From a virus (Duplodnaviria > Caudoviricetes), in IMG/VR virus record IMGVR_UViG_3300030372_001376, positions 1-26,870 of that record: 26,870 nucleotides of DNA, one strand, 5' to 3'. Position numbers and translations under genes: made by a program. The notes under the pieces were generated by a model, which made no database searches, was not told the origin of the DNA, and saw only the letters and a program-made list of their open reading frames with translations. The stretch's first letter is position 1; every line of letters begins with the position of its first letter. Shown one piece after another: positions 696 through 22,230 of this stretch.

Positions 696-1730
696 TTATG
701 CGAAAATTGCTGCAAATGCACCAACGATTGCGTCACCAGGCACACCGATTTGGCAACCTAGTCCGAAACGCATAGCAATCTTTACGTTGTCTGATCCGTC
801 GTACTGCCAAGCGTCAATGTATTGAGCCGTCGTGTAATCCGTGTTCAGGTTAGAACCTACTACTAGATTCTCTTCGTAAGTTAATAGCAAACAATCGTCA
901 GGGAATCCAGGACATACGTGAATTGGAATACCTAAGTATTGCAGAGTGTCAAACGCTTGGTTTGTAGACTGCATATTCACACCTTGATGCGCTCCTGAAA
1001 TAGCTAAAGCTGTCATATAGTTACCTGCTGTCTTTGGTGAACAGTAGTAAGCAAGGTCAGGACGATTAAGGATAGCAGGACATTGCGCTAAAGCGTTGTT
1101 ATATACTACGTGGAAAGCACCAGTAGCACCTAAGATAACACTAGCAGCAGCGTCAAATCCTGTAGCACCTACAATAGTTTCATTTGCAGCAGGCAAAGAA
1201 GCACCAATAATTGAAGCGTTGTAACCTGCGTTATCAAAAGTTCCGGAGTTAGAAAGGAAGCCACCTGCAAAAGTACCCGAAGATACCCAAATGTTATCCT
1301 CTACGCCTTGTGCTGCGTAACCTGCAACTGTAGCCATTGAGAAGTTTACAAACTCAGGTGAGCCTGCTGTCATAGTTTCTCTTGCTCCAGTCATTCCAGC
1401 CCACGTAGGTAGTAATGTCTTACGACATAGTGCCTCCATAACTGCAAGGTCTGTAAGAGTAAGAACTCTTTCGCCTAGTGTTAGTGAGTCGTTATCATTC
1501 CAGTCACAATTAGCTGCCTGGATAACGCCCGTAGAACTAAGGCTTGAAATTACGGCTTTGTTTTGTATGCCGTCGATTTGACGCACGAAGTTTTTAGTCA
1601 ACGTCGTTGCGAGTTTAAGAGCAGGAGCTACAAAAGGGGCTGCGTGTACTCCTGCATAAGTTGTAGCAGGTGTAACGGCAGGATTTGCAAACTCTCTACG
1701 CTTACGAGATAGTGAACGTGAATAGCTCAT
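696..1730 (-). CDS. Major capsid protein
   Basis: 344 aa after scaffold; N-terminal TTYAG..A motif and C-terminal DGSDNVKIAMRFGLGCQIG motif typical of Bacteroidota phage capsids. Confidence 0.8.
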   Translation of the reverse strand: MSYSRSLSRKRREFANPAVTPATTYAGVHAAPFVAPALKLATTLTKNFVRQIDGIQNKAVISSLSSTGVIQAANCDWNDNDSLTLGERVLTLTDLAVMEALCRKTLLPTWAGMTGARETMTAGSPEFVNFSMATVAGYAAQGVEDNIWVSSGTFAGGFLSNSGTFDNAGYNASIIGASLPAANETIVGATGFDAAASVILGATGAFHVVYNNALAQCPAILNRPDLAYYCSPKTAGNYMTALAISGAHQGVNMQSTNQAFDTLQYLGIPIHVCPGFPDDCLLLTYEENLVVGSNLNTDYTTAQYIDAWQYDGSDNVKIAMRFGLGCQIGVPGDAIVGAFAAIFA

Positions 1731-2218
1731 TACTTATTAAGGTTTTTATTTATCATATTAAAAGCCTGCGCTGTAGCTTTACCCATTTGAGTATTGCTTT
1801 CCTCAGATACCTCACCAAATGGTGCGTTTCTAAGTGGCTTGGTTGCAGGCGACTGACCAAACTCTCTAAGCTGCTTACGCAACTCAATATTCTGACGACG
1901 TAGGCGTGCAATCTTACGACCTTCACGACCTTCAGATTTGAAGCCTCTACGACCTCTGCGTCTACGCCTCTGACGAGACGCTTCTACTTTTACTTCTTCT
2001 TTCACTTCTTCTTTTTCCTCCACAACTTCACCTTCACTAGCGTCGATTAAATCCATAGCCATTTGGTGTACTGCTTCAGCTTGTTCAGCAGATAACCCCA
2101 TATCTACTAAAAGATTAATAAATGCTTCGTGAGAGTCGGGGGTAGACTCTTCTTTTACTTCGGTAGTTTCTTCGACTTTTTCTTCTACTACTTTTTCTTC
2201 GAACTTATACTTGCTCAT
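1730..2218 (-). CDS. Putative scaffolding protein (acidic N-half, poly-Arg segment, coiled coil)
   Basis: Glu/Lys-rich, heptad segment ..LRRQNIELRKQLREF, then PATKPL..P linker; TAATG-coupled to the capsid gene. Confidence 0.65.
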   Translation of the reverse strand: MSKYKFEEKVVEEKVEETTEVKEESTPDSHEAFINLLVDMGLSAEQAEAVHQMAMDLIDASEGEVVEEKEEVKEEVKVEASRQRRRRRGRRGFKSEGREGRKIARLRRQNIELRKQLREFGQSPATKPLRNAPFGEVSEESNTQMGKATAQAFNMINKNLNK

Positions 2219-2254: not shown

Positions 2255-2515
2255 TTAATAGCCAAATTCGGCTTCATCAATAATTTCATAAAATAAATCC
2301 TTGTCTAAGGCACGGATCAAAGGGGGTGCTGAACGCTCAAACAATAAGCGTAACCTATCGTAGTCTTCGTCAAAAATAGCGTCCTCCATTTGACCTACAG
2401 CAGCTAAGAATCTAGTGTCATAGTCGTAATCAAACGCAAACTCTTCTAGCATAACCATTAACTCTTCCTGAGCTGAGTTAGTCCATACGTCCCATATTCT
2501 TCTTATTAAGCTCAC
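2255..2515 (-). CDS. Small acidic helical protein (86 aa), candidate DNA mimic/anti-defence
   Basis: D/E- and aromatic-rich, no Cys; GTG start overlapping the upstream TAG; in the ArdA cassette. Confidence 0.6.
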   Translation of the reverse strand: MSLIRRIWDVWTNSAQEELMVMLEEFAFDYDYDTRFLAAVGQMEDAIFDEDYDRLRLLFERSAPPLIRALDKDLFYEIIDEAEFGY

Positions 2516-2736
2516 TATACCTCTCTTACGTCGCCTCTGCCAAACTCGTCTTCGAGTATTGTAAGTAGCTCGTCAAATTCAAAATCGTCTACGTTTTTAG
2601 TGCGTAGCAAAAAATACCTTTCGTCGTATGCGTAGTCTATTCGGTCTACCATATAGTAAACGTACATATCTTCTAAAAAACGCTCCGTATTTAAGAAACC
2701 CAAATTGCTGGGAAACTCTATATATCTTTCCTTCAT
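2515..2736 (-). CDS. Small acidic protein (73 aa), possible distant member of the ~70-aa family
   Basis: Acidic; FLEDMY and ELLTILEDEFG segments resemble the paralogues at 3718-5683. Confidence 0.6.
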   Translation of the reverse strand: MKERYIEFPSNLGFLNTERFLEDMYVYYMVDRIDYAYDERYFLLRTKNVDDFEFDELLTILEDEFGRGDVREV

Positions 2737-2756: not shown

Positions 2757-3461
2757 TCAATAAGGTCTAAAAATGTGTCCGTCAATTTCGTAGTAACCCT
2801 CGTACTCTAAATCTCTAGCTAGTCTTTTGTAGTCTAAGTAATTAGAAATAAAATCAATTCCTAAATCTGTTACGTCGCCGAAACCCTCAATATACCATTC
2901 TGCAAAATCCTCGTCTCGTCCGTCTAGTAAATCTTCAGCTTCAGATATGTCTAAGCCCCAATCTTCAACTAGCTCTTCTATACGAAAGTCATACTTTATC
3001 TCTCTACCAAAACTTTCGTAGTCAAATAAAGCTGCGTAGTAGTCCTCGTTTAGTAGTTCTTCGTCTACTAGATAGTGAGCAAATTCTTCAAAATTTCTAT
3101 GCTCACCTTCATACGCATTCTCCATTACTTCTTCTAGTTGCTCAATACCCCAACCGTGTGCTACAAGCTCAAACATAGTCTCAGGCTTTAGTCCGTATTC
3201 CTTAGCTAAGTCAAATAAGTTATTGTAAGCGTCCCATACGTTCTTATCGTCGTACATTCCAAACGCTGCTTGTTGGTCTAGGTAGTCCCAATCTACAATA
3301 TCGTAATCTTGGTCTTTGTTACTGTACTCAATCCAATGCTCATCAAAAGCATCTACGTATTCGCTATGCGACCTATAAGACAAAGGCTCAAAGTCTACGT
3401 CTACGCTTTTTCCGTCATATAGGTAAAACCTTACCCATACTTGTATATCGTTTCTATCCAT
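2757..3461 (-). CDS. ardA: ArdA-family antirestriction protein (DNA mimic)
   Basis: Very acidic; YDIVDWD motif, AYEGEH..FEEFAHYLVDE, and ArdA C-terminal signatures LFDYESFGREI and YLDYKRLARDL..GYYEIDGHIFR. Confidence 0.85.
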   Translation of the reverse strand: MDRNDIQVWVRFYLYDGKSVDVDFEPLSYRSHSEYVDAFDEHWIEYSNKDQDYDIVDWDYLDQQAAFGMYDDKNVWDAYNNLFDLAKEYGLKPETMFELVAHGWGIEQLEEVMENAYEGEHRNFEEFAHYLVDEELLNEDYYAALFDYESFGREIKYDFRIEELVEDWGLDISEAEDLLDGRDEDFAEWYIEGFGDVTDLGIDFISNYLDYKRLARDLEYEGYYEIDGHIFRPY

Positions 3462-3721
3462 TAGATATTTGTTATTATTTCGTCAATTAAATCGGTTTCT
3501 AACCCTCGTCCGTATTCTCTTTCGGCAAGTGTATAGGCAATGTCAAGTTGAGCAATAGCCCCTCCTGAGTCACCCTCATAAAGAAGGTCACTAGCAAGAG
3601 TCATTACGTCCATTATTTTAGCTGAAGGCATAGACGTAAACTCGTCAAGGAATACACCCATAATAACCTCCGACAAGTCGTCGTAGCGTAGGTAGTCTTC
3701 TATGATTCTTTGTGCGCTCAT
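3461..3721 (-). CDS. Small acidic helical protein (86 aa)
   Basis: Acidic, amphipathic helices; ATGA and TAATG coupled to neighbours. Confidence 0.6.
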   Translation of the reverse strand: MSAQRIIEDYLRYDDLSEVIMGVFLDEFTSMPSAKIMDVMTLASDLLYEGDSGGAIAQLDIAYTLAEREYGRGLETDLIDEIITNI

Positions 3722-3933
3722 ATCTCTATATATTCAAAATCATAATTGTACGCATATAGCGCATCGTAAATCTCTCTAAGTTCTGATTCCATAAAACCAA
3801 ACGTATAGTAAATATCGACTACCACATCGTTACCATCTTGGTAAATGTCGAAGTCTAAACTGCTGTCAGCAATAAGACTTTCAATTCTATCTACCCTTGC
3901 TGTGTAAACTATTATTTGACCTTCTAGTCTCAT
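3718..3933 (-). CDS. Acidic ~70-aa paralogue family member
   Basis: IIVY...DVVV...IYDAL..YNYD pattern; 16 D/E vs 4 K/R. Confidence 0.65.
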   Translation of the reverse strand: MRLEGQIIVYTARVDRIESLIADSSLDFDIYQDGNDVVVDIYYTFGFMESELREIYDALYAYNYDFEYIEI

Positions 3934-4148
3934 TATCCTAAATAATCATATAACATATTTACACTATCCATAGCAAATTCCAAGTCTACTGAAGTGTCAT
4001 AATCATTAGTCTTTATAATTACTTCACCTAACTCGTCTCCTTCTTCTAATTTTATATTGCGAAAAATATCTCCAGGGTTTCTAAAGTAGTCTTCTATAAA
4101 GTCTACGACTTCTTCTAAGTAAACTTGATATACTATTAAATTATACAT
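3933..4148 (-). CDS. Acidic ~70-aa paralogue family member
   Basis: MYNLIVY...FIEDYF...GEVII...DLEFAM; 17 D/E vs 4 K/R. Confidence 0.7.
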   Translation of the reverse strand: MYNLIVYQVYLEEVVDFIEDYFRNPGDIFRNIKLEEGDELGEVIIKTNDYDTSVDLEFAMDSVNMLYDYLG

Positions 4149-4154
4149 TTTATT

Positions 4155-4373
4155 TTATCTTAAATTATGTTCTGCATCAAAACCACCATCTTCTAGTGCG
4201 TCTAAAAACATATCAATTTCTTGACCTGACAACCCTCCTATGATTACGTCATAACCATCGTATTGAATTCTGTCTAAAGAATTATCTCTCGGCAAATCGT
4301 AATCAAAATATTCTAATAAAAAACCTTCTACATTTCTAAGGTCTGCGTCATATACTATTATTTCGTCCCACAT
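4155..4373 (-). CDS. Acidic ~70-aa paralogue family member
   Basis: EIIVYD...FLLEYF...DVII...LDALEDGGFDA; 19 D/E vs 4 K/R. Confidence 0.7.
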   Translation of the reverse strand: MWDEIIVYDADLRNVEGFLLEYFDYDLPRDNSLDRIQYDGYDVIIGGLSGQEIDMFLDALEDGGFDAEHNLR

Positions 4374-4374
4374 T

Positions 4375-5460
4375 TTAATTTCCGTATTTAGCTTTTATTG
4401 AACCGCAAATCTTTTCTGCTGTTTCCTTGTTGCCGTAGCGTTTCATTTGATCCGCTATACATTCGTCCCAGGGGTAAGAGGCAAGCTCTACGTATTCGTC
4501 CTCTAAGTTAGCAAAATTATGGTAATTACCAAACATTTGCTTAAATCTAACTTTTAATAAGGCTCTATAGTATTGTACTTTCATATCGTTTAATTCTGTT
4601 TTTTCTTCTACAACCTCCTCAGTTTTCTCTTCAATTTTCTCTTCTACCTCTTCTACCTCTCCGTCGTATTCTATAAGAACACCCTCAAATACTTCTAACT
4701 CAACACCCCCTTCAGTTTTGTACTTGCCGTTATCAATTTCAATAGGTAGCCCTTCGTCGTCAAGGGTAAATACTGTAGCACCTGCTGATAGACTTTCACC
4801 TTCAGTAGCTAGTACCATTCCGTTTTCTAAGTTTACCTCTGCGTAGAAGTTACGCTTAATAGAGTGCCACATTCTTTTTACTATACTTTTCATATCTGAC
4901 TTTTTTACTTTAGTAGACATTTCTTCTACCGAGTCTAAAAAATAACCCTCTATAGAAAACCCTCGTATCTCACCGTCTTTTACGGCTTGCCACATTTCGT
5001 CATTAGCAACGTGAACACGTACAGCCCAAGTACCTTCAGGCACACTAAGTCCGTAGTGCTTAGTTTTATCCATATCAGGATTTTCAACTATCCACGATTC
5101 AACCACGCTTACACCATCTACTTTGTCCTGGTGTTCAAACGTATGCTCGTTAGTTCGGTTAGACTTTAGGAATAACTCTGAAGCTAGTTTAACAGTTTCC
5201 TTAGAAAAATAAACGTCATACTCTTCGTCGCTTAGTTCGTCATAACGAGGTATATGTTTATCAGGGATCAAAGCTGCACCAATTAGTGTGCGCTTCTCTT
5301 CGTCGATAGCTGCTAGACTTAAAGCCTTTTGTTTTTTGTCTTTAGAAAAGAATACAAAGTTTTCCTCTATAGCAGGAAACTTTACAAGGCTTATAGCCTC
5401 AACGCCAAAAGCGTCTCCGTCCTCTTCTATAAGTAGTTCTACTAATTTTCTGTTAGCCAT
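4375..5460 (-). CDS. Prohead serine protease (XkdF-like) with C-terminal scaffold-like extension
   Basis: AISLVKFPAIEENF, LIGAALIPDKHIPR, TFEH, VVESWIVE, GTW, GEIRGFSIEG motifs. Confidence 0.85.
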   Translation of the reverse strand: MANRKLVELLIEEDGDAFGVEAISLVKFPAIEENFVFFSKDKKQKALSLAAIDEEKRTLIGAALIPDKHIPRYDELSDEEYDVYFSKETVKLASELFLKSNRTNEHTFEHQDKVDGVSVVESWIVENPDMDKTKHYGLSVPEGTWAVRVHVANDEMWQAVKDGEIRGFSIEGYFLDSVEEMSTKVKKSDMKSIVKRMWHSIKRNFYAEVNLENGMVLATEGESLSAGATVFTLDDEGLPIEIDNGKYKTEGGVELEVFEGVLIEYDGEVEEVEEKIEEKTEEVVEEKTELNDMKVQYYRALLKVRFKQMFGNYHNFANLEDEYVELASYPWDECIADQMKRYGNKETAEKICGSIKAKYGN

Positions 5461-5470
5461 TTAAGTTGTT

Positions 5471-5683
5471 TTAGTATAATTCGTCTGCGTCAAAACCTTC
5501 GCTTCTAAGAGCAAATAGTAAATCCTCTTGAGTCTCAAAATCTTCAAGGGATATAATTACATCACCATAAACATCGGTATCAACACCCCTAATCTTATTA
5601 AAGCTAGATTGGTGTTCAAAGTAGTCTTCAAGGAAATATTCTATCTCATCTACGTCTGTGTCAAAAACTATTAAATCATACAT
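5471..5683 (-). CDS. Acidic ~70-aa paralogue family member
   Basis: MYDLIVFD...FLEDYF...GDVII...DLLFALRSEGFDA; 21 D/E vs 3 K/R. Confidence 0.7.
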   Translation of the reverse strand: MYDLIVFDTDVDEIEYFLEDYFEHQSSFNKIRGVDTDVYGDVIISLEDFETQEDLLFALRSEGFDADELY

Positions 5684-5696
5684 TTTATATTGCTTT

Positions 5697-5713
5697 ATAC
5701 TAATCTATATATA
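5697..5713 (-). promoter_or_regulatory. Third copy of the candidate late motif (TATATATAGATTAGTAT)
   Basis: ATATAGATTAGTAT matches ATATATATTAGTAT at 13/14; lies in the gap upstream of the protease/acidic-protein operon. Confidence 0.45.
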
Positions 5714-5718
5714 CCTGT

Positions 5719-7644
5719 TTATCCAGGATTAAGTGAAGATTGTTGGTACATATTGTTGGCTTGCATATTAGCACCCTCTAACTCGCTTTGTACGACAAAG
5801 GCTTGGTTGTTACCCTCTTCAGGTGAGTCGAGTCTAGCTACTCCTGTAGGCACTAAAGCCTGTACGTTAGAACGACCACCACCACCACCTCCGACGTTAC
5901 CACCCCCTCCGTCAGTAGCTTCGTTAAGGATAGCCTTAACTCCAACAAACGCACCTAATACGGCAGCCGTAGACGCTACGATACCTGCAATCATATCCCA
6001 CACAGTTGCGCTCGATTGCGTTGCTGTTTTGATACCATTAGCTAACGCAACAGCTTGTGCAAGCAATACCCCTGTTATAGCAAAGCCTTTTGCAGCTTTT
6101 TCATTATCTCCTGCGAGAGCCTCCATAGTGCCAAATAGATTCTGCGTAGCACTAATTACAGCCTTAGCTCCTGCCTCTCTAATTTTAGTCTCTTTATCTA
6201 CTCCATCTTTTACTATTTCATTCCTTTCGTCTTCGCCTTTCTTTTTTATTTCAGTAAGTTCGAGTTCGTACTGATCCTCTACCATTTTGATAAGCTCTTG
6301 GTTTTCACCTGCCTGAGCTATACGCCTGTCAAACTCTTGCTGCGCCCTCAATTCCTCTTTAGCCTGCTTATCAAAGCTCAGCATCATTTCCTCTTCATAC
6401 TTTAACTGCTCTTCAGTAAGCTCCCTATCCCTTCCGTTAGTACGGATCATAAATAGCTCGTCCTCTAACGCTTGCTCGTCAGCTAATGCCTGTTGCCTGT
6501 CGGCTTCGTCTTCCTCTTTTTGTCTGTCGGTGTAACTCTTATTGAGTGCTTCACGCTCTAATTGGTATGCTTCGTCAATTTTAAGAAGTTGCTCGGCTGT
6601 TGCGCCTGCTAGAGTCGCTTTTATTTTTTGCTCACTATGACGTAGCTCTAAAACCTTTAACTGTCTTTCCTGCTCGTCCTCAATACCTGCAAGTAATATC
6701 TCTTCGCTCAGAGTCTTTTCTAAGTCAGCAAGATATTTAGCGTTAGCCTCTGCTTGTTTTTGAGATTTAAGCTTTTCAGCAGCAGCTTCTTTTTCGGCTT
6801 TATCCCTGTCTTCTACAGAGGTTTTTACTGCTCCTACGGTTCTATTGTATTGCTCTGTTGCATAGGTTAATTGCTCTAATGCTCTAGCAGATTTCTCTTC
6901 AGCTTGGGCTTGCTCCTTTTTTAATCTTGCCACCGTTTCGGCATCCTTGTTGCCAGATTTCCACAGGTGGGCTCTTAATGTCTCGTTAGCTATCGCTTGC
7001 GCTTGCAATTTTCCCTCAAGTGCAATCTCTGCTTCTCGTAAAGCTATAGTTCTTTTTTGCCCCTCTCTTGCTTGCTCTAGCTGTGTCTCCATATCTGCTT
7101 CACGGTCTATAGCACCGTCAAGAGTTTCGTTTAACATATCTAAAGCTATTTGACGCTGTTTACTTGAAGCGTATTGGTCGTCGAGAATACTTAAATATGC
7201 TGTCTGACGGTTGATTAGTTCGTCAGTTACTTCACGTGCTTGCCTGTTCGCATCTGCTGTTACTTTAGCTTGCTCTTCTAAAGACTTATTTGTTAGACCT
7301 ATTGATTCTGATAAAACGTCCCAATTTTCTATAAGAAGTTCAACAGCTATTATAATCAAACCAATACCAACGGACGCCCACGCAGCTTTCAAACCCTTAA
7401 ATGACTTTGACACCCTGCCTATTGACCTTTGGGTAGACTTAAAAGACCTAATAGTCTTTTGCATACCTCTAGGCAATAGTCCTGTAAATAAATCTGCTAC
7501 GCCGCCCCAATTCTTAGAAGTTTTTTTGCCTGCCTTCTGCATAGTCTTAGCCGCTTTATCTACTGACTTCTCTACCTCTACAAGTCCTGCTTCAGTATTG
7601 TTGACGATATCTACCGTCATATCTAATTTAGCGTTTTTTGCCAT
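5719..7644 (-). CDS. Tail tape measure protein
   Basis: 641 aa, long Ala/Glu/Lys helical region, hydrophobic segments near both ends, Gly run and QAFVVQSEL C-terminus; follows tail genes. Confidence 0.75.
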   Translation of the reverse strand: MAKNAKLDMTVDIVNNTEAGLVEVEKSVDKAAKTMQKAGKKTSKNWGGVADLFTGLLPRGMQKTIRSFKSTQRSIGRVSKSFKGLKAAWASVGIGLIIIAVELLIENWDVLSESIGLTNKSLEEQAKVTADANRQAREVTDELINRQTAYLSILDDQYASSKQRQIALDMLNETLDGAIDREADMETQLEQAREGQKRTIALREAEIALEGKLQAQAIANETLRAHLWKSGNKDAETVARLKKEQAQAEEKSARALEQLTYATEQYNRTVGAVKTSVEDRDKAEKEAAAEKLKSQKQAEANAKYLADLEKTLSEEILLAGIEDEQERQLKVLELRHSEQKIKATLAGATAEQLLKIDEAYQLEREALNKSYTDRQKEEDEADRQQALADEQALEDELFMIRTNGRDRELTEEQLKYEEEMMLSFDKQAKEELRAQQEFDRRIAQAGENQELIKMVEDQYELELTEIKKKGEDERNEIVKDGVDKETKIREAGAKAVISATQNLFGTMEALAGDNEKAAKGFAITGVLLAQAVALANGIKTATQSSATVWDMIAGIVASTAAVLGAFVGVKAILNEATDGGGGNVGGGGGGRSNVQALVPTGVARLDSPEEGNNQAFVVQSELEGANMQANNMYQQSSLNPG

Positions 7645-16908: not shown

Positions 16909-17335
16909 TAGATAATGTTTTTAATGAGTGGTTATGTAGGTAATATATCCTAAATACTTCAGAACTAAACCAATCCATCTCTTGTAAGATACTATTGATA
17001 TAGTCTAAAGTTTCTTTTTTTTCGTTTTCGTTTTCCACAACCTCTTCCTTAGTTTGAAGTAGTGCCAGTGGGTAGTTTACTAATTTTTCTTTGTGCTTGA
17101 GGTATTTATAGTAGAACCTAGTTGTTTTGCTAAATCCACAAATAGCCATAGTCCTGCATATATAACTCATTAGCTCTCCGTCCTTGCACATTTCTTCGAG
17201 CTTTGGTTTTGGTTCTTCTAAATAAAATAAAGCAAGGTCGTTAAGCAGGTCACCTCCGTAGCCTTTGACATACCGAGTAGCAACCACCAGGAGTTCGTCG
17301 TAATTATCTTCAAAGAACTTTCTTACACAGCTCAT
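16799..17335 (-). CDS. Phage sigma-70/ECF-like sigma factor
   Basis: Region-2-like DLLNDLALFYL and region-4 HTH SLKTLSNATGISKSTLYNALRKA; likely start ATG at 17335. Confidence 0.75.
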   Translation of the reverse strand: MSCVRKFFEDNYDELLVVATRYVKGYGGDLLNDLALFYLEEPKPKLEEMCKDGELMSYICRTMAICGFSKTTRFYYKYLKHKEKLVNYPLALLQTKEEVVENENEKKETLDYINSILQEMDWFSSEVFRIYYLHNHSLKTLSNATGISKSTLYNALRKAQEEVKEKVKGFRGHHRKNN

Positions 17336-17729
17336 TGTATTTATCGGTAAACCCCTTCCGTATTTCAATAATTTCTTGTGTCGAGAATTTGCGTGTCTCG
17401 TTGCTCATTCTCACAATTTTCATAGCCGTACCTTCTCCGTAAACTGAGTCTAACCTAGCACCGAACAAAAACTGTTGCCCTCCGTTTGTCAAATTACAAT
17501 GCTTGCATTGGGGCATACAGTTATACAAGTTATTCTCTTCGTCGTATAACCATCTAGTGCTGTACTTAGACCTGCTTTGAAAGTGTCCACAATCGCACTC
17601 GTATTTCCAGTCTACTAATTTCTGACAAGTAAAACAAGATACGTTGCCGTGCCTATCTGCGTGTCTAAATCTAACGTACTTGCTCAAGGCTTGGTCGAGC
17701 TTTTTTACTTCAGTAGAACGCTTAGGCAT
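17310..17729 (-). CDS. ninG: NinG/Rap-like recombination endonuclease
   Basis: LDQALSKYVRFR, CFTC, DCGHFQSR, QCKHCN motifs. Confidence 0.85.
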   Translation of the reverse strand: MPKRSTEVKKLDQALSKYVRFRHADRHGNVSCFTCQKLVDWKYECDCGHFQSRSKYSTRWLYDEENNLYNCMPQCKHCNLTNGGQQFLFGARLDSVYGEGTAMKIVRMSNETRKFSTQEIIEIRKGFTDKYNELCKKVL

Positions 17730-17819: not shown

Positions 17820-18731
17820 CTAAGATACACTATTTACCTCTTCTAATTTATTAATAGCCTTAAAAATTTCGTAAGCCACTTGAGGCACTATTGCGTTTCC
17901 GTAGGCTTTGATTGATTCCCTTCGCCACTTAGAAAAGGTAATGCCGTCCAATTCTTTGGAAAGCCCATCATTTCCTCTACAAATAGGGGGTTGAGTTGGG
18001 AAGATTTTCCAGTTTGGAATTTGACATAGTTCGGCAGTTGGTTCAAATGATTCTTGTGTCCTGTGTCTCGCGTTAGATGCTCCATAGAATTTGTTCCTTT
18101 TATGTCTCTTGCGCAAGGTGTCGGTATTAGACTTGAATACTTTACTTGACTTAGTAGACTTCCGTACTTCGTTCCGTTTTTGTATCCATTCTTTGCTACC
18201 CTCTGTCTCATTTTTTCGGGCGTTTCGTCTGTCATCACTGTCGTTGGCGTAAGCAATAAACCAAATTCTGTCTCGTCTATGGGGAGCGTTTTTACCGCAA
18301 GCTGGAAGTAAGTACGGTTGGACTTCGTACCCTTCAGCTTCCAAGTCAGCGCACACTTGCTCGAAAACCAAGCCCCCTGACCAATTAAGAAGTCCCCTAA
18401 CATTTTCGCCCACGACGTACTTCGGGGCAACCTCTCGAATAACCCTAAGCATCTCTGGCCAGAGGTGGCGTTCATCTTCTGTTCCTTTTCGTTCTCCTGC
18501 GTTACTGAAGGGTTGACAAGGGAAGCCTCCTGTGATAATATCAATTCGTCCAAAGTAAGTTGTCGCATCAAATGTTTTTATATCGTTATACAATTTTGAG
18601 TTTGGGAAATGGTGTTTTAATATTTTTTGAGCAAATGGTTCGTATTCACAATGAAAGACGTTCTCCCACCCTGCCCATTCAGCAGCTAGGTCAAAACCAC
18701 CAATACCCGAAAATAGTGATCCGTGTGTCAT
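17820..18731 (-). CDS. DNA cytosine-5 methyltransferase, alpha chain
   Basis: Motif I FSGIGG, IV GGFPCQPFS, VI ENV, VIII RRDRIW, X YGNAIVPQV; motif IX not evident in this frame. Confidence 0.92.
   Translation of the reverse strand: MTHGSLFSGIGGFDLAAEWAGWENVFHCEYEPFAQKILKHHFPNSKLYNDIKTFDATTYFGRIDIITGGFPCQPFSNAGERKGTEDERHLWPEMLRVIREVAPKYVVGENVRGLLNWSGGLVFEQVCADLEAEGYEVQPYLLPACGKNAPHRRDRIWFIAYANDSDDRRNARKNETEGSKEWIQKRNEVRKSTKSSKVFKSNTDTLRKRHKRNKFYGASNARHRTQESFEPTAELCQIPNWKIFPTQPPICRGNDGLSKELDGITFSKWRRESIKAYGNAIVPQVAYEIFKAINKLEEVNSVS
17888..18571 (-). CDS. Overlapping alternative-frame beta chain of the C5 methyltransferase
   Basis: Nested same-strand ORF with LLLTPT, LIPTPCARD and motif-IX-like LNPLFVEEMMGFPKNWT; true start uncertain. 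Confidence 0.75.
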   Translation of the reverse strand: MMRQLTLDELILSQEASLVNPSVTQENEKEQKMNATSGQRCLGLFERLPRSTSWAKMLGDFLIGQGAWFSSKCALTWKLKGTKSNRTYFQLAVKTLPIDETEFGLLLTPTTVMTDETPEKMRQRVAKNGYKNGTKYGSLLSQVKYSSLIPTPCARDIKGTNSMEHLTRDTGHKNHLNQLPNYVKFQTGKSSQLNPLFVEEMMGFPKNWTALPFLSGEGNQSKPTETQ

Positions 18732-22198: not shown

Positions 22199-22230
22199 CA
22201 AATATATGGTATTTAATCTAATAAAACAAA
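22199..22230 (-). promoter_or_regulatory. Bacteroidota housekeeping-sigma promoter
   Basis: -33 TTTG (22230-22227), 20-nt spacer, -7 TATATTTG (22206-22199) matching TAnnTTTG. Confidence 0.8.

Follow-up and report, generated by a model that had tools for sequence, protein, structure and literature searches.

In phage T4, the internal proteins Ip1-3 are packaged via an N-terminal signal and each blocks one GmrSD system, and the same sources describe a capsid targeting sequence at the N-terminus of the T-even internal proteins (Ips) and related Ips that are basic (PMC12373910, PMC9026906). P1 DarA and the polyvalent proteins fused to MuF or portal proteins are described as head-tied effectors that are cleaved and delivered by the virion (PMC5512222). 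Here we describe an array of small acidic genes within the head gene block of a 26,870-nucleotide tailed-phage contig (Duplodnaviria; Caudoviricetes; IMG/VR record IMGVR_UViG_3300030372_001376, hereafter the window) that occurs in marine metagenomes, with no RNA data set among the sources listed. From the tape measure to the scaffold gene, the array reads A, protease, B, C, D, E, a 234-aa ArdA homologue, F and G on the minus strand (Table 1), and its eight non-protease open reading frames (ORFs) are the eight most acidic among the 41 ORFs of the window. We give about an even chance to the reading that cassettes A-D are counter-defence cargo, packaged in the head, ejected with the DNA and swapped between phages as cassettes. 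Some anti-defence role for the cassettes, packaged or not, is probable, since two of the readings weighed below imply one.

The cassettes resemble T4 Ip1, Ip2 and Ip3 in being small and non-conserved and in forming gene sets that vary between related phages. The Ip mode (packaged, injected and directed at one restriction system each) serves as the proposed model for the cassettes. Unlike the Ips, the cassettes are acidic and have no common tag, and they lie among the head genes of a ~30-kb phage, where a DNA linker connects them; because a targeting sequence was tested for and is absent, they are not members of the Ip class. P1 DarA and the polyvalent proteins tie a counter-restriction or effector domain to a head protein, as do protease fusions in 9 of 43 relatives of the window. 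Here, however, the carrier is the prohead protease, the fusions are sporadic and involve single cassettes, and the majority of cassettes stand as separate genes. Integron cassette arrays likewise consist of promoterless single-gene units exchanged at a repeated junction, but the junction here is a short stop-to-start linker that doubles as the translation start region. Most cassette spacers are 11 nt, and the attC sites of integrons are longer. We found no description of this array in the literature listings searched, a set with few subscription papers.

We compared the window (W) with the best 80 of 254 confirmed viral stretches from a protease search (L001-L080). The 46 closest relatives form one group, 44 of which show small acidic ORFs flanking the protease (the contigs of L012 and L041 stop just past this gene), and the other 34 relatives contain no such acidic run. 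We grouped 349 small ORFs, a few of them spurious, into 122 clusters at E 1e-5 (108 at 1e-3). Of the 281 unique cassettes, which span the 122 clusters, 92% carry a net charge of at most -0.1 per residue. Each of the 22 complete distinct arrays comprises 7-12 cassettes, with a total charge between -87 and -168. The unit at this locus is an array shuffled from ~120 mutually unrelated families of acidic cassettes, and the A-D family is one of these. By sequence comparison, four of the eight window cassettes belong to this family, and the array that holds them, bounded by the tape-measure and scaffold genes, is hypervariable. Pfam searches with the 122 cassette representatives gave only DUF3846 above the cut-off, with DUF7249 just below it, and PHROG searches with 62 non-ArdA representatives and three ArdA copies returned only families of unknown function besides ArdA. 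Five arrays contain a near-neutral, Thr/Gly-rich cassette of 268-289 aa (L010 4151-4972, L024 4323-5159, L027 7905-8717, L034 7632-8438, L037 9722-10591) that by eye is like a decoration or fibre protein and has no match in Pfam (five copies) or PHROGs (three copies).

Even nearly identical phages have few cassettes in common. Among 13 pairs of loci with at least 95% identical protease domains, cassette families overlap by only 0.16 (Jaccard index). G is the most constant cassette, with 28 copies in 47 loci. We mapped breakpoints against the window in contigs from three studies (runs X3-X5), and they coincide with gene borders. F is replaced or skipped (2514 to 2755) in contigs of all three runs, A is skipped or replaced in X3 contigs, B and C are skipped together in an X5 contig, and an X3 contig has 205 bases between E and D; several of these joints have short sides of 27-47 bases. 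C shows 0 differences in 70 codons from the L002 copy at a protease dS of 0.23, and D, adjacent to C, shows 6 synonymous differences. These patterns point to turnover by whole-gene replacement and not by rapid point change. D is itself a real gene, because its dN/dS of 0-0.07 against three orthologues indicates purifying selection.

Four of the ORFs, A-D, had been singled out as ~70-aa acidic paralogues in a preliminary description of this DNA. Their coordinates, minus-strand orientation and lengths (70, 72, 71 and 71 aa, with 73 aa for a possible fifth member, F) are as given there, and the D/E versus K/R counts of 21/3, 19/4, 17/4 and 16/4 were reproduced. Pairwise comparison against 3000 composition-preserving shuffles yields significant scores for A-C (z 13.5), A-B (z 8.4) and B-D (z 4.9). 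The pairs A-D (z 1.0), B-C (1.7) and C-D (-0.3) are not significant individually, so the four are linked as a chain. Iterating a profile to convergence gathered 24 sequences at E <= 1e-3 and none of 1124 shuffled or reversed decoys. A second profile, built from 17 relatives with the window proteins and their close database homologues left out, recovered A (E 6e-8), B (2e-10), C (2e-5) and D (2e-16, with D's orthologues among the seeds) above the best decoy (0.025). The homology of the four ORFs is thus borne out by both the shuffles and the relatives-only profile. F fares differently: its z against A-D is at most 1.3, neither profile recovers it, and hhalign gives a 14% probability between an F-like set and the family. 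Membership of F in the family is not shown by these comparisons.

A and C are 39% identical, with intermediates in databases. W and L001-L003 have 3-4 family members per locus and the other 43 loci 0-2, a count biased towards the window's sub-clade because the profile was seeded from the window. A profile search of 1.84 billion representative proteins yielded 35 matches, 30 short and five long. The long matches, considered as polyproteins, are unrelated repeat proteins (insect allergen repeats, HYR, RTX repeats and FliD). The clusters looked up for five of the short matches contain only contigs of <=30 kb, which fits a family confined to this phage group. A-D have no PHROG match at E 0.1 and no family above the cut-off in Pfam, NCBIfam or PADLOC. 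They constitute a new sequence family with a common fold.

AlphaFold2 modelling of A from a 26-row alignment (pLDDT 85, pTM 0.69) gives the order strand-helix-strand-strand-helix-strand, and the ESM Atlas model agrees. The beta-alpha-beta-beta-alpha-beta arrangement guessed earlier from hydrophobic periodicity is the one predicted, and the family likely adopts a ferredoxin-like fold. Fold searches returned generic ferredoxin-like domains (ACT, RRM and HMA), to which this fold is common, with many tied VIA matches and a best VIA Z of 8.9 (rmsd 1.9, 65 aligned residues). Most of these matches are only 6-20% identical, and in contrast to them A-D have neither a CxxC metal motif nor a basic RNA-binding face. 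A-D contain no Cys at all, and the 26 aligned sequences have no Cys/His-conserved column at the position of the HMA-type CxxC after strand 1. Conservation is concentrated in the hydrophobic core and in acidic positions on both helices, and no catalytic column is conserved in the family alignment. The net charge of A-D (-12 to -18 in ~70 aa) resembles that of small, strongly negative DNA mimics.

The Foldseek PDB search gave no match at E <= 0.001. Ocr, Ugi, Arn and Acr proteins do not occur among the Foldseek PDB matches listed, the VIA top 50 or the PDB profile search; the comparison with solved inhibitors proposed in the preliminary description accordingly found none among the matches listed, and a known-inhibitor fold for A-D is compatible with these results. 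The best BFVD match is an unnamed 71-aa protein with 39% identity, and ESM Atlas feature matches were below 0.8 and uninformative. No structural head protein, the kind of match named earlier as counting against an inhibitor family, appeared in the library and fold searches run.

We identified one cassette with a known function by family membership. The 234-aa ORF scores 38.7 bits against the ArdA family (Pfam accession PF07275, gathering cut-off 27), and its predicted structure (pLDDT 92) has as top Foldseek matches 2w82_B and 2w82_A (prob 1.00; TM 0.66-0.67 by target, rmsd 5.6-6.3, E 7.5e-3 and 2.2e-2), followed by a match at prob 0.12. Three relatives of this protein match PHROG anti-restriction families; a PDB sequence search gave spurious repeat matches only. 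Profile and predicted fold together place the ORF in the ArdA family of DNA mimics, which act against Type I restriction-modification. ArdA is present in 15 of the 22 complete distinct arrays, and none of 15 more distant ArdA-like matches lies in such an array where mapped (11 loci). All cassettes share the strong acidity of ArdA (PDB 2W82), but A-D are not ArdA homologues. The window ArdA is also longer than the 2W82 chain (234 aa versus 162 residues), sits among head genes and has counterparts fused to the protease in L019 and L020. Together with the absence of head-protein matches, an ArdA homologue in the same run lends substance to the arms-race character attributed to A-D at the outset.

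Several observations link the array to head assembly. In 9 of 43 full-length proteases, the C-terminus extends into a cassette that other loci encode separately. The fusions involve six different cassettes, among them ArdA (L019, L020), a member of the A-D family (L021, E 5e-16) and, in L037-L039, a homologue of E; a seventh, in L040, is borderline (E 0.013). Fused and unfused proteases are sisters in the protease tree (L021/L027, L004/L005 and L041/L034). At every fusion joint, M, L or F lies no more than three positions after a basic residue, and 11 of 12 scaffolds examined carry repeated motifs of this kind, the exception under the strict pattern being the window scaffold. These basic-x-x-(M/L/F) motifs are candidate prohead protease sites. 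Among the 122 families, information at positions N+2 to N+12 is <=0.38 bits, and 4 of 122 begin with a short basic leader pattern. The free cassettes L005 2566-2859, L011 2860-3153 and L006 7085-7348 start with a short basic leader whose last residue is L or F, as in the DUF7249-like family; such leaders are similar to the fusion joints and may act as a miniature tag for loading or cleavage.

Arg-rich scaffolds accompany the array. Scaffold Arg content is 9.9-16.5% in 24 array loci and 1.0-4.2% in 24 array-less loci, with no overlap, and five additional array loci have 11.6-16.7%. The capsid arm contains 3-5 Arg in array phages versus 0-2 in others. In the cultured relative P12024L, which lacks an array, Arg accounts for 1 of 173 scaffold residues. 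Protease and scaffold are a single gene in P12024L and two genes in L047-L080; the array clade is split differently, with the scaffold N-terminal domain on the protease and the cassettes between the halves. The window protease also ends in a two-cysteine domain (4375-4490, minus strand; weak match to PHROG 4907, E 0.09) that is present in L009, L017, L067 and L074 and absent from most clade members. This domain may be another fused passenger.

A conserved linker marks the cassette borders. In L009-L046, the sequence TAA-ACAACAGAGAT-ATG, with <=2 mismatches allowed, lies before 144 of 282 cassettes and before 12 of 37 proteases, but before none of 127 core genes and none of 16 ArdA genes. The A-rich linker fits Bacteroidota translation, in which starts are A-rich and free of Shine-Dalgarno sequences (PMC6847099). 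The linker is nonetheless more than a start signal, because a start signal would also precede core genes. An exact 17-mer scan over all viral contigs recovered 85 stretches. Wherever a locus has at least two copies, core genes of the clade are also present, the short locus L162 being the one exception. The matches in 17 loci that have a single copy and no core genes appear to be due to chance. The sub-clade of W and L001-L008 has a variant, TAAAACAACTTAAAG, before 27 of 30 genes in the slots up to the protease. Within the window the linker is well kept only at the A-protease junction, and no longer DNA repeats were found there, A-D sharing only chance-level matches of 11-22 nt. Copies of the protease 3' end lie between downstream cassettes in L002 and L006. 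Cassette exchange probably proceeds by recombination at the linker. Pfam scans of the 41 window ORFs detected no integrase, in a 26.9-kb contig that may miss a few kb. Junctions in L010, L031, L043, L045 and L046 have a 9-base linker form whose in-frame translation, T-T-E-M, is like a protease-fusion joint. We speculate that the linker may descend from a coding cleavage linker.

The motif TATATATA precedes the array and also occurs between genes at ~2234, 13420 and 26613, where it stands before the scaffold and two other virion blocks; the two remaining matches are intragenic. This distribution suggests that TATATATA is a late promoter of the array. Judged against the host-type consensus, the array strand has a single complete host-type promoter, at 22206, distant from the array.

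We propose that the array would be transcribed late from the TATATATA motif and that its products would be loaded without a tag, either as protease fusions or by pairing of their charge with that of the Arg-rich segment of the scaffold and the capsid arm. The prohead protease may release them during maturation at basic-x-x-(M/L/F) sites. Ejected with the DNA, they could block host restriction and similar nucleic-acid-binding enzymes by polyanion or DNA mimicry, with the ferredoxin-like fold as a small, stable frame under a variable acidic surface. Exchange between co-infecting phages may occur by short-homology recombination at the linkers, perhaps with NinG/Rap help. More tentatively, cargo may be addressed by charge without any tag, such that an Arg-rich scaffold loads any sufficiently acidic small protein and a 30-kb phage keeps 7-12 swappable injected inhibitors, drawn from a pool of >100 uncharacterised families and reshuffled at the stop-to-start linker without an integrase.

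Several lines of evidence support packaged counter-defence cargo: the position of the array inside the head gene block of one clade and its absence from 34 distant relatives, ArdA in the arrays, protease fusions, Arg-rich scaffolds, gene-by-gene exchange, the charge bias of the cassettes, the distribution of the linker and the lack of a host-type promoter near the window array. A number of results weigh against it. D is under purifying and not diversifying selection, and the A-D fold is generic and points to no target. The window protease has no fused cassette, and the strict cleavage pattern has no match in the window's own scaffold. The Arg contrast compares one clade with outgroups and may reflect a single evolutionary event, so that its small p-values exaggerate the contrast, and the protease tree is weakly rooted. 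Scaffold Arg correlates within the clade neither with total cassette charge (rho -0.29, p 0.19, n 22) nor with cassette number (rho -0.02). A search for a shared N- or C-terminal tag in the 122 families found <=0.44 bits per position. Finally, six loci (L018-L020, L022, L023 and L025) have a host-type TAnnTTTG (-7) box between the tape measure stop, which it closely follows, and the array, and this suggests early array expression there.

The last two results would also suit anti-defence cassettes that act unpackaged in the infected cell, with the head region serving as a tolerated, strongly expressed insertion hot spot, as would the usual action of ArdA after expression in a new host and the presumed awkwardness of co-packaging acidic proteins with DNA. 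We regard this as a somewhat unlikely alternative, as the six independent fusions of cassettes to the prohead protease, the restriction of Arg-rich scaffolds to array phages and the lack of a host-type promoter ahead of the window array all weigh against it. The same Arg-rich scaffold peptides could instead be neutralised by acidic core proteins during assembly, DNA condensation or ejection. The cassettes would then be structural charge partners of largely free sequence, which would explain why their common trait is charge rather than sequence, why all 22 arrays have a large negative total charge and why G is nearly fixed next to the scaffold. We consider this reading improbable: a folded ArdA in 15 of 22 arrays and strong purifying selection on D argue against it, ~120 families in constant turnover would exceed the needs of a charge buffer, and charge does not correlate within the clade.

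It is highly improbable that the cassettes are outer-surface decoration or host-range capsid proteins. The Thr/Gly-rich cassette of ~270 aa found in several arrays behind the same linker has such an appearance, but ArdA works inside cells, the fusion partner is an internal protease, and PHROG, Foldseek PDB, BFVD and VIA searches gave no decoration-protein match. We consider equally remote, and largely refuted as a whole explanation, a recent tandem duplication in which one inhibitor gene was copied locally and the copies diverged within this lineage, in line with the 'duplication with strong divergence' of the preliminary description. The 3-4 members per locus in the window's sub-clade are compatible with it, and A and C may stem from a past duplication in that sub-clade. 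However, D groups in the family tree with copies from the distant phages L018, L040 and L046 and not with A-C (support 86/89, not starred), C was recently exchanged, A-D lack a DNA repeat beyond chance-level matches, and relatives fill the same slots, with borders precise to the gene, with unrelated cassettes. A test also rejected A-D as one clade (p-AU 0.00016), a result that is partly trivial because each of A-D has near-identical orthologues, and we therefore rely on the grouping of D.

Table 1. Features of the array and the flanking head genes (positions in the window)
Feature	Position	Strand	Evidence or remark
Tape measure protein	5719..7644	-	PHROG 1538, E 5.5e-6; synteny; fixed upstream border of array
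TATATATA motif, candidate phage late promoter before array	5706..5713	-	Recurs at other virion blocks
Cassette A, 70 aa, net charge -18, predicted ferredoxin-like family	5471..5683	-	Most acidic of 41 window ORFs
Stop-to-start linker TAAAACAACTTAA-ATG, sub-clade form, A/protease junction	5461..5473	-	
Prohead protease	4375..5460	-	PF14550, E 1e-16; BLASTP to L048 scaffold, E 3e-11
Cassette B, 72 aa, net charge -15, family of A	4155..4373	-	
Cassette C, 71 aa, net charge -13, family of A; DNA identical to copy in L002	3933..4148	-	
Cassette D, 71 aa, net charge -12, most divergent of A-D	3718..3933	-	Orthologues in distant clade members
Cassette E, 86 aa, acidic, separate family (f2)	3461..3721	-	Homologues protease-fused in L037-L039
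ArdA-family anti-restriction homologue, 234 aa, net charge -47	2757..3461	-	PF07275 and fold match
Cassette F, 73 aa, net charge -10	2515..2736	-	Replaced or deleted in relatives; membership in A-D family not shown
Cassette G, 86 aa, acidic	2255..2515	-	Most constant cassette; usually last before scaffold
Scaffold-like protein (putative)	1730..2218	-	Position and layout homology of array-less relatives; no significant match in Pfam and PHROG scans
Arg-rich scaffold segment, candidate acidic-cargo binding site	1844..1987	-	18 K/R, 5 D/E in 48 residues, scaffold residues 78-125
Major capsid protein, Arg-rich N-terminal arm	696..1730	-	PHROG 1623, E 5e-9

The array-bearing phages are an uncultured marine clade. 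The nearest cultured protease is that of Nonlabens phage P12024L/S (37%), and capsid and ArdA searches gave no cultured phage match. Scaffold homologues were located in two metagenome-assembled genomes (MAGs), one of Flavobacteriaceae and one of Parvibaculum; a host among the Flavobacteria is therefore likely but not certain. Clade member L201 (a 27,890-base contig) is part of a Parvibaculum MAG, while the closest genome match is part of a Flavobacteriaceae MAG, possibly reflecting mis-binning. Elsewhere in the window, a gene at 17310-17729 (minus strand) encodes a NinG/Rap recombination nuclease (Pfam accession PF05766, E 1e-8), a candidate helper in cassette exchange. A 227-aa ORF (17888-18571, minus strand) without a Pfam match is nested within a C-5 DNA methylase gene (17820-18731) on the same strand in another frame.

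If the cassettes are counter-defence cargo, the array would be a ready screening library of ~120 uncharacterised candidate inhibitors of Bacteroidota defence, anchored by ArdA, and proteins would be loaded into a capsid by charge instead of by a targeting peptide. Whether or not packaging proves right, gene-precise shuffling at a linker that doubles as a start region offers a clear route to phage modularity.

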